A stretch of 64,000 nucleotides of DNA. Origin: Dictyostelium discoideum (Eukaryota). The position numbers and the translations under genes are program-made. Shown piece by piece: positions 26,216 through 35,283 of this stretch (within the stretch, counting starts at the first letter, position 1; each line of letters starts with the position of its first letter). Location of the stretch: positions 2,752,001 through 2,816,000 of the forward strand of contig CM000154.2 in assembly GCA_000004695.1 (NCBI GenBank), read 5' to 3'. The notes under the pieces were generated by a model. The model ran no database searches, had not been told where the DNA came from, and was given only the letters and a program-made list of their open reading frames with translations.

Positions 26216-26817
26216 TTGTTTTTCTAACTGTTCAATAGCGTATGAAAGAAAATAAGGAAAGTGAATTTTAAAAAAAAATTTGAATTAAAAATAAAAAAAA
26301 ATATAAAATAAAATAAAATAAAAAAATATTAAATAAAAAATAAATAAAATAAAAAATTTAATTTGATAAAAATAGAATTTCAAAATATTATTTATTTTTA
26401 ATTAAATTATTTATTTTTTTTTAATTAATTTTTTCTTATTTTGTTTAGTTCATCATTCAAGATCAGTTTCAAATCCAGTTTTTAAACTATCCTTTTGGTA
26501 TTACTATATCGTGTGATAAAATTATAAATAAATTAATATATTTTAAAAAAAAAGAAATAAATTAAAAAAACTTCAAGTGGAATTTACTATTTTTTTAAAT
26601 TACCAATAAAAATAATACCATCCCTAGTGTGTATTTTCATAGTTTTGGAATTTAATTTAAATAAATTTTTATTTTTTTTTTATTTTTTTTATTTTTTTTA
26701 TTTTTTATTTTAATTTAACTTGTTTGACTTCAAATTTAATTTTTCAATTTTTTTTTTATTTATTTTATTTTTTTTTTATTTTTTTTTTTTTTCATTTATT
26801 TTTTTTTTTTTTTTTCA

Positions 26818-27470
26818 ATGATAAACTGTTGTAGAATTGGTTCAAGGTTATTTAACACAAAAAATAAAATAATCCTTGGAACTTCTTTTAATAAATCAAT
26901 ATTAATTCCAACTATAAATAATAATAGTTATAATAATAAATTTATTTTTAATATTAAAAGAGATTATACAGTAAATAATAAAATGTCAGAAAGTGGTGCA
27001 AAAGCAGGCGCCACTGAAGAAAATGTAAGTATATAAATCTACATTTTTAATATAGATATTTTATGATATTAATATCATATTCCATTTCTTATTATTAATT
27101 ATAAAAGAATAGAATTGACCCAAAGGACACACTATTTGCAAAATTTGTTTCAGGTCAAATCCAAGTACCAAAAGTTTACGAGGATGAATATTGTATTGCA
27201 ATCAATGATATTAACCCACAAGCACCAGTACATATTTTAGTTATCCCAAAACTTGCCGTTGGTGGTGTTAGTGATGTTGCCAATGTTGATCTTGAAAAAT
27301 ACAAAGAAGCCATGGGTCATATCATGTCAAAAATTCATCATATCGCTTCTCTTAAAGGTGCTGATTCTTACAGATTGGTCATTAATGATGGTGTTTTAGG
27401 TCAACAATCTGTTAGATGGTTACATATTCATATCCTTGGTGGTAGACAAATGAATTGGCCACCAGGCTAA
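26818..27470 (+). CDS. HINT (histidine triad nucleotide-binding) protein, copy 1. Exons are 26818-27024 and 27108-27470. A possible alternative start at 26983 gives MSESGAKAG….
   Basis: The HIT signature HLHIHILGGRQMNWPPG and the block FAKFVSGQIQVPKVYEDEYCIAINDINPQAPVHILVIPK are present. The donor is AAT|GTAAGT and the acceptor is TAAAAG|. The N-terminal 55 aa (MINCCRIGSRLF…) could be a targeting extension. Confidence 0.8.
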
Positions 27471-27633
27471 TTTCAATTTTCAAAGAAAAAAATAAAAAAA
27501 AAAAAATAAAAAAAAAAAAGGAATATAAAGTATTGCCAACTGAAATGAACACAAATTAAAACCATTAATAAACATAATTTTATTTTAATAAATCACACTA
27601 ATTAAATGACTTTTGCAATTCAAAATTTACCTT

Positions 27634-28056
27634 TTATTTTTTAAGTGATATTTTAGATATTTTTAAGGATTCTCCATTTGAAATGATTTCAATCCAAATC
27701 CCATCATCTTTTTCTTTTGATTTATAATTAAAATCATCTTCTGCAAAATGCTTTAATTTATTGTAGAAACCTATATTGGAACCAACTTCATCTCTTACTA
27801 GTAGCAATAAAGAAAACTTACTATTGGAACGTGTATAATAAAAAATATATCCTTTAGATAGATCATCTTTAACGGTTTTCATTTGAGATGGATTATTTAT
27901 CATTTTTCCTATAACATCATAGTACATATGGGATCCCGTATTTTTTGCCTGCAAAGCAAGGGTTTTTTCATTATACTTAATTACAAAATCACAACCATGT
28001 ATTTTTTCGTAGGCCTTGCCTATTTTTTCTACCACCACACCATCAACTCTTGACAA
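27634..28056 (-). CDS. ORF (140 aa) of unknown function, paralogous to the degenerate copy at 31653-31952. The start is uncertain.
   Basis: It shares the motif HGCDFVIKYNEKTLALQAK with INGCDFIIYYKGKKLGLQAK in the second copy. Confidence 0.35.
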   Translation of the reverse strand: MSRVDGVVVEKIGKAYEKIHGCDFVIKYNEKTLALQAKNTGSHMYYDVIGKMINNPSQMKTVKDDLSKGYIFYYTRSNSKFSLLLLVRDEVGSNIGFYNKLKHFAEDDFNYKSKEKDDGIWIEIISNGESLKISKISLKK

Positions 28057-31652: not shown

Positions 31653-31952
31653 TTAATGGATCACTAGCAACAATTTCACTTTGAGATAGGTTTTTTTTAA
31701 TTTTTTTAAAATAGTATTGTATGTTTGGCATCCAATAGTTTTTGCCTGCAAACCAAGTTTTTTTCCTTTATAATAAATAATAAAATCACAACCATTGATT
31801 GCTTCGAAGTGCTTGCACACTTTTTGTACCTTTGCTTCTATAAATCTTTGCAAAGCTAATGCTAAAAAATTGGTAATGCTTTCTTCTTTTGGAAAATCTA
31901 TTTCTAGTCCAGTTGATTTTAGTTTTCCTATATTTATTTTAAAATTTTCCAT
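31653..31952 (-). pseudogene. Degenerate copy of the 27634-28056 ORF, shortened by deletions at its 3' end
   Basis: It aligns with copy 1 but has internal deletions (…CATTGGCACGTACATAATAAAAAAATATATCC… versus the longer copy-1 sequence). Confidence 0.3.
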
Positions 31953-32741
31953 TCGATAGAAAAATTGTAAAACTGATGAAAGAAGGAAACATTTTTTTAA
32001 TTCATCGAGAGTAAACCTAGTATATATATAGTTTTAGATTTTTTTCTTTTTACTTTTTTTTTTTTTTAATATTAATAGTTGAGAAGTTACAGTTTTATTA
32101 TAAGTTTTTTTAATTTTTATAAAAAAAAAAACAAAAAATAAAATGGGTGGCCAGGAAAAAAAAAAAAAAAAAAAAAAAAAAAAAAAAAAAAAAAAAAAAA
32201 AAAAAAAAAAAAAAAAAAAAAAAAAAAAATCAAAAAAGAACAGACCCAAAAAAGTCAAAAAAAAATCAAAAAAAAACAGATCCCAAAAAAAAAAAACTTT
32301 TTGAAAAAGTCCGGTCAAATTTTTGTAATTACAAAATCATTTTGAAATCATATTTTAATTTTTTTTTTTTTTTTTTTTTTAAAAGCTCATTTTAATACAA
32401 ACAAAAAATAAATACTCAAAAAAAAATAAAAAAAAGTACATGTGTATATATTAATGATTCACAATTACAAATAATTTAAAATGGTTTAAATTAATAATTA
32501 TCCCATATTATCTATTTTTTAAAAAAGAAGATAATTGATAAAAAACTAAAAAACAATGGATAAATTATTATTTTATTAGATATTATCTATTTTTAATTTT
32601 TTTTTTTTTTTTTTTTTTTTAAAAGTATAGATAATTTTGAACACTATTTACAAGTTTATTTGTTTTTTTATTATTATTATTATTATTATTATTCTTTTTT
32701 TTTTTTTTTTTTTTTGTTTGATTTTGATATTATTATTGTAT

Positions 32742-34502
32742 TTAAACATTATTGCAAATATTAGAGTTATCATTATCAATATCCATTTCAGTATTTGTGG
32801 GTTTTATTTGGAAATCTTTTTCTGTGATGATTGTTGAAGTGGTCGCAGTAATAGTTGTTGTTGTTGAATCAGTTATTTCATTAATATCTCCGTTATAATT
32901 ATTATTACCATTGTTATTTTCACTATTTCTACCATTAATATCATCACTACTAATATCGTCATTACAAACCATCTTTGATTTTTTAAAAGGGCTTTGACTA
33001 ATTATATCATTATCGTCCTCATTATCATCCCTATCATTATCATCACCTTGTTGACTAGGTATTGCTCTTTTTACATTAAATTTATTTTGTTGTTGTTGTT
33101 GTTGTTGTTGTTGTTGTTGTTGTTGTTGTTGTTGCTGATTTATGATATTACTATTAGGACTAATTATTTTATTATCCATATTTGCGGCTATATTATTATT
33201 TTTATTATTATTATTATTACTATTATCATCGTTTTCATTAATATATTCTGGTAAAGCTTTCTTTATTGAATTAAAAACGGAAAGAAGTTGATCTTCCAAG
33301 AAATTAATTTTTTCATTCATCTTCATCATTGTTTCATGCATTTTTGTAAGTTTATCATTTCCAAAGCTTAATGGTACAATTTCATTTTTATCCTCAACAA
33401 TAATATTATTGTTTCCACCAACACTATAACTAAAAAAAGAAAAAGAAAAAACATTAGTTAACCTTTGTAAAAAAAAAAAAAAAAAAAAATCTTATAAAAT
33501 ACTTACTATGTTATTGAACCAATATCAACAACGAAATGATTATTTAAGATTTTGAATTTTTGTGATGTTTTGTTATATTTCCTTCCTAATGGCGAATTAC
33601 AATAACTACAATAAAATAGGGAATAAATACTTTTATAAAGAAAAAAAAAAAGAAAGAAAGAGTTAATATGAAAGATAATCAATTATCTTATTAAATAAGT
33701 ATTTATATAATTACCAATCAGTTTCACCTCTATAAGTTGATGGTTTTTGATCACCTAAAATTACAGATCCTCCAAGTTTTTTCATTACAAAGGTGTTTGT
33801 TAATGTCATATACATATCACACTCGTGAGATTTATTAACGATTAATGTTGAATCACCAATTGGTGTTTTACAAGATAAGCAACTAAATATTAAAATAGAA
33901 TTTATAACCTCTTCCAATGTAGGTATTTCATTAAATTGTTCCTCTATTTGTTGTTCATTATTATCTTGTTGCTCCTCTTGTTGTTGATGACGATGATGGT
34001 GGTGACGATGTGACTTTGATGATGATCGGTGTTCTTCTTGTTGTTGTTGTTGTTGTTGTTGTTGTTGTTGTTGATGATGATGGTGATGATGTGACTTTGA
34101 TGCTGATCGGTGTTCTTTTTTTTTTTTTGAGCTTGAACTTGATGTTGTTGTTTGTTGCTTTTGTGGTTTTGGTGTTGTTGTTGTTGATGATGATGATGAT
34201 GATGATGATATTACTTGTGGTTGTTGTTGTTGTGGTTCTCGTTCTTGTATTGATTGTGATTCCTTGTTAATGTTTAAATTAATTGGTGAAGCTGGTGATT
34301 TTTGATTATATTGTTGAAGGAATAACTTTTTATATGATGGTGGGGGTGGTTTATATGGTGTAGTTTGTGAATTGGAATTAATGGAATCTCTAACTTCATC
34401 GTCACTATCATCTCTACTACTTTTCTTATTACTACTCTCAATAGGGTGTGAAGTTTTTTGTAAACTTTTATTTTTATCTGTTGATCCAACTTTTTTATTC
34501 AT
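32742..34502 (-). CDS. Q/N/His/Ser-rich low-complexity protein, the complete copy. It has about 3 exons, roughly 34502-33719, a short middle exon near 33590, and 33440-32742.
   Basis: ORFs 33711-34502 and 32742-33341 lie on the same strand. GTAATT…TTATTGTAG and GTAAGT…TTTTTTAG introns bridge them. The protein contains …CLSCKTPIGDSTLIVNKSHECDMYMTLTNTFVMKKLGG… with polyQ, polyH and polyN tracts. No family was recognised. Confidence 0.45.
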
Positions 34503-35283
34503 TTTTTTTTCTAAAAAAAGAAATAAAATAAAACCCTTTGTTATATTTAATTAAATTTAAAATTAAATATAATTTTTTAAAATTTAATTAAATTTAAAAT
34601 TAAAAAAAAAAAATGAAATGGGAAATAATTTTTTTTTTTGAAAATTGGAAAAAAAAAGAAAAAAAAAAAAAAATTGAACAAGCCAACCCGCGCTTTTTTC
34701 AAATAAATTTTTTTTTTTTTTTTTTATAAAAAAAAAGCCGAAATCTGGTAATTATAATTGATATCTAAATTTAAAATAGAAAATAAATAAAAAAAAGATA
34801 AAAATAAAAATAAAAAAAAAATAGAAAAAAAAAATTAAAAAAAAAAAAAAAATAAAAAAAAAAAAAAAAAAAAAGTAACAAATTCACCATATAAGTTCAC
34901 CTCGACAACTTCATACAATAAAAATTTCACAACAGTTTTTTTTTTTTTTTTTTTAAAAAAATTCAAATTTTTTTTTTAAAAATTTTTTTTTTTTTTTTTT
35001 TTTTTTTTTTTTTTTTTTCCCAACGAATAAATAATTAAAGATATAAATATAATTTAATTATAATTTTGTTTTGTCATATATTTTATTTTTATTTTTTTTT
35101 TCCTAAAATATAAAAAAAAAAAAAAAAAATCTTTTTTTTTAAACTTCATAAAATTGTACTAAAATTATACAAAACAAAAATAACATTATTATTAAATAAT
35201 AACGCACGCACACAAACAAAATCCCACCTACAGCACAAATACCCTCCCACGTACCAATAATAAAAGCATAAATATAAATAAAA

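Follow-up and report, generated by a model that had tools for sequence, protein, structure and literature searches.

The window analysed here is a stretch of 64,000 nucleotides of Dictyostelium discoideum (GenBank assembly GCA_000004695.1, contig CM000154.2, positions 2,752,001 to 2,816,000 of the forward strand). Its G+C content is 23%, and the spliced translations derived from it exactly match proteins of D. discoideum AX4 chromosome 5. Upstream of the gene for lamin NE81 it holds two adjacent blocks with a HINT gene, a small open reading frame (ORF) and all or part of a Mis18 homologue, the first of which is followed by a piece of lamin exon 3. The structure and origin of these blocks are the subject of this study. 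The locus was compared with that of a second D. discoideum assembly (L001, GCA_054883475.1, annotated as ACTFIT), D. citrinum (L002), the cryptic sister species D. cf. discoideum ACTFIY (L003) and ACTFIZ (L004), and two diverged tropical, single-copy isolates labelled D. discoideum (ACTFIW, L005, and ACTFIR, L006).

Gene content and layout of the two copies

The features of the locus are as follows, in window positions.

25812..26242, minus strand: 3' remnant of geneU, frameshifted and truncated; a coiled-coil gene of 231-244 amino acids in relatives
26243..26726, no strand: filler, 484 bp, AT-rich, separating the geneU remnant from the sequence upstream of HINT copy 1
26727..27480, plus strand: HINT copy 1, DDB_G0289439, exons 26818-27024 and 27108-27470; ancestral ATG kept
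27634..28320, minus strand: small-ORF copy 1 (DDB_G0289427 region), an orphan, 5' part frameshifted
28625-28773: microsatellite of copy 1, (ATT)50, expanded relative to copy 2
28778..29879, minus strand: Mis18 relic of copy 1, with exon 3, part of exon 2 and the 3' part of exon 1
29880..30337, plus strand: relic of lamin NE81 exon 3, 458 bp, source interval 36832-37455, out of frame
30338..30564, minus strand: 5' end and upstream region of geneU; ATG at 30479, pointing into the lamin relic
30795..31561, plus strand: HINT copy 2, which is pkiA, DDB_G0289391, exons 31089-31109 and 31189-31551; translation matched
31557..32130, minus strand: small-ORF copy 2, interrupted by a stop codon and a frameshift and truncated at its 3' end
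32668-32693: microsatellite of copy 2, (TTA)8.7
32742..34502, minus strand: intact Mis18 homologue, exons 34502-33715, 33629-33507 and 33429-32742; 532 amino acids in the three-exon gene model of this analysis
35284..37636, plus strand: lamin NE81, DDB_G0289429; the ORFs end in CLIM and the 2353 bp equal the published length (PMC3258179)

When the window was aligned to itself with low-complexity filtering, four same-strand matches remained in the region, and more sensitive settings added two further blocks.

26773-27478 and 30866-31559, +/+: 88.1% identity
28689-29638 and 32656-33606, +/+: 89.8% identity
29635-29877 and 33756-33995, +/+: 95.5% identity
29975-30244 and 37044-37313, +/+: 98.1% identity
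29879-29967 and 36832-36920, +/+: 100% identity (more sensitive settings)
30241-30337 and 37362-37455, +/+: 94.8% identity (more sensitive settings)

Copy 1 (26735-29879) and copy 2 (30795-33995) are adjacent, co-linear direct repeats in the same orientation, i.e., a tandem duplication. From left to right, copy 1 is composed of HINT, the small ORF, the 3' part of the Mis18 gene and the lamin exon-3 piece, after which copy 2 opens with the 5' end of geneU and HINT, and the order and orientation of all these parts are ancestral. The 915-bp spacer between the copies consists of the lamin relic (29880-30337) and then 30338-30794. An Rfam scan of 24-40 kb (E <= 1) gave no match and the sole transfer RNA (tRNA) gene of the window, for tRNA-Lys, lies at 16639-16713, which indicates that the spacer carries no known RNA gene. 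Pfam gave no match for the small ORFs or the junction ORF. An initial annotation, made from the letters alone, had pointed to co-linear, near-identical blocks and suggested self-alignment as the check. The co-linearity is confirmed by the alignment above, but near-identity holds for only ~1.1 kb, as the global alignment of copy 1 to copy 2 showed.

26866-27478, HINT: 72-99% identity
27480-27760: 280 bp present only in copy 1 (no identity value)
27763-28350, small ORF: about 70% identity
28794-29638, Mis18 relic: 95-98% identity
29639-29815, part of Mis18 exon 1: 99-100% identity

The copies do differ in microsatellite length, (ATT)50 and (TTA)8.7, as had been described.

Both HINT copies carry the Pfam HIT domain PF01230 (E = 1.7e-20 in copy 1 and E = 2.4e-21 in the other) and a conserved C-terminal segment with predicted catalytic activity, by which they are members of the HIT/HINT family. 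The translation of copy 1 exactly matches KAM9947705.1 and XP_636243.1 and retains a basic N-terminal extension of 55 amino acids, and copy 1 is 95-96% identical to the single HINT of ACTFIY and ACTFIZ. The translation of copy 2 exactly matches Q23921 and XP_636246.1. The initial annotation had recognised the duplicated HINT gene, but overlooked that the surviving duplicate is pkiA.

The gene previously termed Q/N-rich matches the Pfam family Yippee-Mis18 (PF03226, E = 6.4e-23). The domain region matches human Mis18-alpha (PDB 7SFZ_B, E = 8.5e-6) and S. pombe Mis18, and the motifs CLSC and CSYC form two CXXC pairs as in the Mis18 family. By these matches it is a Mis18 homologue, with a role at the centromere predicted at most; its duplication had been seen earlier, but not this identity. 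A 2026 review of Dictyostelium centromeres does not mention Mis18 (PMC13510849). The intact gene (minus) stands head-to-head with lamin NE81 (plus) over a shared upstream region of 780 bp, and this arrangement is kept in all six related loci.

The Mis18 relic of copy 1 has neither the promoter nor codons 1-169 (the equivalent of 33996-34502), and the loss of the 5' half of this gene, as claimed before, is thus borne out. A deletion of 149 bp (equivalent to 33607-33755), with TGTAAT-like microhomology at its junction, took intron 1 and the exon edges and created a stop codon. In exon 3, the relic branch carries 10 nonsynonymous and four synonymous changes, which indicates neutral decay, and the outgroup/stem branch carries two and seven, respectively. 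A homologue search with the 197-amino-acid ORF of the relic gave zero matches, for which low complexity is the probable cause. The ACTFIT annotation calls a 245-amino-acid protein from this relic, probably a prediction artefact.

The 460-bp match to lamin exon 3 that had been reported is present as 458 bp (29880-30337 against 36832-37455), but it is not inverted, as both the relic and the lamin gene are on the plus strand. The relic is opposite only to the neighbouring Mis18 relic, as in the ancestral head-to-head arrangement. It aligns to its source in three blocks of 100%, 98.1% and 94.8% identity (98.4% over aligned columns), and the relics of the locus diverge 1.6-4.5% from their sources. 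One of the "two clean internal deletions" of the initial annotation, the second one (52 bp, with ATGG microhomology), was found as described, but in the first one 7 bp of filler stand in place of 123 bp, which makes the net loss 116 bp, and a 3-bp insertion is also present. The relic is out of frame after each deletion. To call the parent gene essential was an overstatement, as NE81-null cells did arise, although other cells outgrew them and no clone could be isolated (PMC3258179). The ACTFIT annotation fuses the lamin relic and pkiA into a protein of 307 amino acids, ACTFIT_001036 (L001 13073-14734; window about 29861-31522). The chimeric model exists as annotation only, the lamin frame within its region is broken by the 116-bp and 52-bp deletions, and the fusion is probably an artefact of gene prediction.

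The two copies of the small ORF are 70% identical to each other, and copy 2 is 88% identical to the small ORF of the single-copy isolate ACTFIW. Four homologues were found in 5.8 billion proteins, all within the D. discoideum complex, i.e., the small ORF is an orphan. Its frame is shifted in ACTFIY and in the two copies of AX4 and intact in ACTFIZ (194 amino acids), and its positions in relatives are L004 10001-10701 and L005 10926-11444. Between all taxa its nucleotide identity is 67-79%, as compared to 93-98% for the neighbouring genes, and the 70% identity between the copies is therefore partly an effect of rate.

The second assembly, single-copy relatives and the junctions

The independent long-read assembly of D. 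discoideum (L001, a contig of 5.29 Mb) is 99.7% identical across window 16789-37518, in two alignment blocks whose ends overlap in a poly(A) tract near 32.2 kb. It has no N in the locus and contains both copies and all junctions; the collapse of the blocks in an independent assembly, which had been named as the sign of an artefact, did not occur. The AX4 sequence is a Sanger-era assembly with a gap at 47899-47998 in the window, and it could be suspected that the second block or the junction at 29.88 kb came from a chimeric clone or from a repeat that was collapsed or expanded in assembly. But the copies differ by 2-30%, which is too much for an assembly duplication, every junction is reproduced in a de novo assembly, and the 1996 PkiA record AAB03669.1 already holds copy-2-specific sequence. 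The duplication is real and an assembly artefact is effectively refuted. As it is common to AX4 and the second D. discoideum assembly, the duplication predates laboratory culture. Searches of the literature on NE81, on pkiA and on the new assemblies yielded no description of it; the annotation of AX4 already included both HINT genes and the small ORF.

The locus is single-copy in all five other assemblies (L002-L006) with the same flanking genes, in the order pescadillo (minus), geneU (minus, in some), HINT (plus), small ORF (minus), Mis18 (minus), lamin (plus) and PA14 (plus). The geneU gene lies between pescadillo and HINT in ACTFIY, ACTFIW and ACTFIR (L003 8207-9215, L005 9053-9787 and L006 9025-9747), was not found in ACTFIZ or D. 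citrinum, and is broken in AX4. Its 3' remnant at window 25812-26242 shows 85.9% identity over 25875-26239 to L005 9162-9535 and 83% to L003 8321-8642. The homology ends at ~26242, and a stretch of 108 bp in the relative's gene is found at neither place in AX4. The 5' part is found in the spacer, where 30338-30564 is 92.1% identical to L005 9645-9863 and 30371-30475 is 90.5% identical to L003 9090-9194; in single-copy genomes this 5' and upstream sequence stands directly upstream of HINT. An 18-nt match between 26216-26233 and 30443-30460 was considered as upstream homology and dropped, as it is the geneU remnant at its own position and reflects the codon repetition of the coiled coil.

The geneU homology begins exactly at TGTAATAATTC, right after the lamin sequence ...CCAAGACCTCA. 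At this junction (30337/30338), lamin position 37455 meets geneU 5' sequence with no visible microhomology, i.e., the distal end of the unit is joined to its proximal end. The proximal copy, on the other hand, does not run seamlessly into the upstream flank, where the missing geneU segment and the 484-bp filler are located. BLAST of the filler against the window and loci L002-L005 gave only low-complexity matches. At the third junction (29879/29880), between the Mis18 and lamin relics, there is GAT microhomology. Short microhomology is found at most internal deletion junctions (GAT, ATGG and TGTAAT-like), whereas the 123-bp lamin deletion is bridged by its 7-bp filler instead.

Origin and age of the duplication

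The simplest reading of the locus is a single direct duplication of about 7.1 kb beside the lamin gene, followed by decay of copy 1, and we give it a probability of about 80%. In the order we infer, a tandem-type duplication of 30338-37455 (7,118 bp in copy-2 coordinates) would have occurred in the lineage to D. discoideum AX4, with a unit that ran from the geneU 5' end through HINT, the small ORF and the Mis18 homologue into lamin NE81, as far as the middle of exon 3, and a non-homologous join would have put lamin 37455 onto geneU at 30337/30338. The proximal copy would then have decayed by a 2.8-kb deletion with its junction at 29879/29880 (equivalent of 33996-36831), taking the 5' half of Mis18, the promoter that it shares with lamin and the initial 1.55 kb of the lamin gene, and afterwards by smaller slippage-type deletions of 149 bp, 116 bp net and 52 bp. 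HINT alone would have survived doubled, copy 1 remaining conservative and pkiA losing its start codon and extension and undergoing fast protein change. The layout of the locus, its junctions, the single-copy state of the outgroups and the contrast of neutral and accelerated substitution are direct observations, whereas the sequence of events and the mode of repair belong to the model. The size of the unit is deduced from geneU: because its 5' end, which in single-copy relatives precedes HINT, follows the lamin piece at 30338, the unit would be about 7.1 kb and the apparent fusion of Mis18 and lamin would be the internal 2.8-kb deletion. The earlier proposal stands in so far as the duplication is local, one copy has decayed and a pseudo-fragment of lamin remains, but its unit of ~4 kb does not.

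Developed into a model, that proposal has a ~4-kb duplication from HINT to the middle of Mis18 followed by an independent capture of 460 bp of lamin at the breakpoint, for example by end-joining filler or template switch. A later arrival would fit the lower divergence (98-99% identity) of the lamin relic and of the 180 bp of Mis18 exon 1 next to it, as compared to the rest. But this low-divergence zone spans the Mis18/lamin junction and is not specific to the lamin piece, and the fragment is in ancestral order and orientation relative to both Mis18 and geneU/HINT, which a random capture would match only by coincidence. A separately acquired and inverted fragment is not what was found, as the lamin piece is co-linear and co-oriented with the series HINT, small ORF, Mis18 and lamin. 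With this order and orientation no separate lamin insertion is needed, and in the larger duplication each junction is a simple deletion or a simple join. We consider the independent capture unlikely.

Two further routes for the lamin piece were rejected. A processed (retro-) pseudogene is not supported, as no poly(A) tract follows 30337 and the piece lies in ancestral order 7 kb from its parent; intron loss is uninformative here, as the piece falls within one exon. For a transposon-mediated capture, self-BLAST found no repeats flanking the block, and the ORFs and Pfam matches in 26-31 kb included no transposase or reverse transcriptase.

Several observations weigh against a single direct duplication. 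The proximal edge needs an extra step to explain the filler and the lost 108 bp, possibly a second indel in copy 1, or the whole rearrangement was possibly one complex break-repair/template-switch event. No intermediate allele was observed among the loci compared. Divergence is uneven along the block: identity is lowest in the small ORF (about 70%), reaches 89% in HINT and is highest in the Mis18 (95.7%) and lamin (98.4%) relics. The lamin relic has three private changes in about 450 bp, as compared to about 12 predicted from the rate of the Mis18 relic, and with this count and its identity of 98.4% it looks younger. At 12 sites in HINT and at 19-35 in the small ORF, copy 2 has states in common with ACTFIW and ACTFIR that copy 1 does not have, and copies 1 and 2 share only 0-1 sites in these regions. 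One simple recent event cannot explain this pattern in HINT and the small ORF. In its left part, copy 1 falls outside a group made of copy 2 and the single-copy tropical isolates; the Mis18 relic showed no clear grouping in the site-pattern comparison. In pescadillo and lamin exon 1, AX4 is 2.3-2.5% diverged from ACTFIW, which is far more than the diversity within the species, reported as about 0.3% (bioRxiv 10.1101/2025.10.22.684067). Nor is the event recent, as had been stated: the synonymous divergence (dS) between the HINT copies, 0.089, equals that of AX4 from its cryptic sister species (0.067-0.096), and the relics are 1.6-4.5% away from their sources.

Such a mosaic could mean, with the architecture unchanged, that the copies were never identical and that two deeply diverged HINT/small-ORF haplotypes were joined, through ancient polymorphism or introgression from a cryptic sister lineage. 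Alternatively, the duplication may predate the split of the tropical isolates, with its right end homogenised later by gene conversion. The grouping of copy 2 with ACTFIW and ACTFIR is consistent with this, and copy-1 HINT is closest to ACTFIY and ACTFIZ (95-96%, as compared to 92% and 89%). A complex intron indel is common to copy 1 and ACTFIY and the other form is common to copy 2, ACTFIZ and D. citrinum, and divergence is highest at the small ORF and declines towards the lamin relic. On the other hand, there are few informative sites outside the fast and partly saturated small ORF, the comparison rests on six loci, and both small-ORF copies are frameshifted, which makes selection for keeping two alleles not evident. 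ACTFIW and ACTFIR are also unlike revertants of the present AX4 arrangement; geneU is intact in both, which argues that they never carried it. The small ORF, with its 67-79% identity between all taxa, already shows that rate heterogeneity alone covers part of the pattern, and uneven substitution rates across the block may account for much of it. A mosaic ancestry is therefore a tentative alternative, although a weightier one than the capture of lamin, and it hints that the haplotype structure around this fast-evolving orphan is old.

Under a single direct duplication, the locus is an ordinary case of duplication and degeneration with one asymmetrically evolving survivor. Like other tandem duplications of this kind, it has a multigene direct repeat, a non-homologous junction, breakpoint genes (geneU and lamin) left as fragments, a redundant Mis18 copy deleted into inactivity and now neutral, and an asymmetric HINT pair that was kept; unlike them, it has 484 bp of filler at the proximal edge and a mosaic of apparent ages. 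Bloomfield and colleagues reportedly described large duplications in D. discoideum laboratory strains in 2008. Those duplications, such as the one on chromosome 2 of AX4 (PMC12745789), are likewise lineage-specific in the AX4/AX2 (NC4) background, but they extend over hundreds of kb, are essentially identical and vary between stocks, whereas the present one is 7 kb long and 2-30% diverged. The tgrBC locus (PMC12745789; bioRxiv 10.1101/2025.10.22.684067) also contains local duplicates, partial fragments of neighbouring genes and recombination mosaics, and differs between D. discoideum and its cryptic relatives. But tgrBC is a hypermutable recognition locus, and the present case looks like a single event in a syntenic housekeeping region, with no evidence of repeated turnover. 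Its evolutionary value is that of a cleanly dissected example, of modest interest, leading from duplication to degeneration with pkiA as the asymmetric survivor.

The HINT pair and possible effects of the relics on work with NE81 and Mis18

HINT is the only pair retained in two copies, and the two have evolved very differently. Their dS of 0.089 lies within the 0.067-0.103 of the comparisons with ACTFIY and ACTFIZ, and the nonsynonymous divergence (dN) is 0.076, as compared to 0.011-0.018. When the changes were partitioned with the outgroups, about 19.5 nonsynonymous and 3.5 synonymous ones fell on the pkiA branch (omega about 1.5), and about one and about three, respectively, on the branch of copy 1. 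The first 25 codons of exon 2 hold 13 of the 17 replaced codons, and the C-terminal 52 codons differ at a single position. General acceleration or an older origin of copy 2 was ruled out by the codon analysis, as dS is ordinary and the excess is nonsynonymous.

In pkiA the ancestral ATG has become ATT (30912-30914) in both D. discoideum assemblies and is kept in all outgroups, and 21 bp are missing after the internal Met. Every related species has the long HINT with the N-terminal extension only, and pkiA-type proteins are limited to the records of D. discoideum AX4 and ACTFIT. The long-known Dictyostelium gene pkiA is a lineage-specific paralogue that occurs in none of the sampled relatives and does not have the ancestral extension. 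The 55 amino acids absent from pkiA are basic and almost free of acidic residues, a composition that suggests a targeting peptide, and its loss may have changed the localisation of pkiA. In animals, HINT1 is cytosolic and nuclear and its paralogue HINT2 is mitochondrial. The Dictyostelium pair resembles these in having one HIT-domain copy with a basic N-terminal extension and one without, but it is independent and much younger, and the extension was lost via the start codon.

Upstream of pkiA, an 18-nt core (tgggtcaggatcttgggtg) within window 30601-30718 is inverted relative to ACTFIY (L003 9333-9350), and in AX4 it is flanked by 11-nt inverted repeats (agagtgaggaa / ttcctcactct). This region may be a small invertible or regulatory element.

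The relics bear on experiments with their parent genes. The 3' arm of the NE81 knockout was genomic positions 1675-2353 (PMC3258179), which is window 36958-37636 and includes 364 bp that are duplicated at 95-98% in the relic (29975-30337). Ectopic integrants were found alongside null cells in that study (PMC3258179), and the overlap may affect NE81 targeting. Only 4-7 kb from the parent genes, AX2/AX4 contain 364 bp with 95-98% identity to NE81 exon 3 and about 1.1 kb with 95-99% identity to the Mis18 homologue. Reagents designed against NE81 or Mis18, be they homology arms, polymerase chain reaction primers, probes or constructs for RNA interference (RNAi) or antisense work, can strike the relics.

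The geneU promoter and first exon might still fire and produce antisense NE81 (458 nt) followed by the Mis18 relic, and, as a related idea, the sense lamin relic might serve as a 5' exon or untranslated region of pkiA; we regard this as very improbable. The 458 nt of the lamin relic are 95-100% identical to NE81 mRNA, and the sense relic as a pkiA 5' exon is predicted by one annotation pipeline. If the antisense reading were true, AX4, which has RNAi, would have a pseudogene-derived source of natural antisense or small interfering RNA acting on lamin and/or Mis18.

Elsewhere in the window, the assembly gap at 47899-47998 is a run of 100 N, and a direct repeat of about 207 bp (89% identity, 13994-14427) lies within a region of higher G+C. 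An inverted repeat of 166 bp (98% identity, 16832-16997 and 18382-18546) adjoins the tRNA-Lys gene, and a tandem array with a period of 228 bp and about seven copies, 91-93% identical, is located at 59201-60798.

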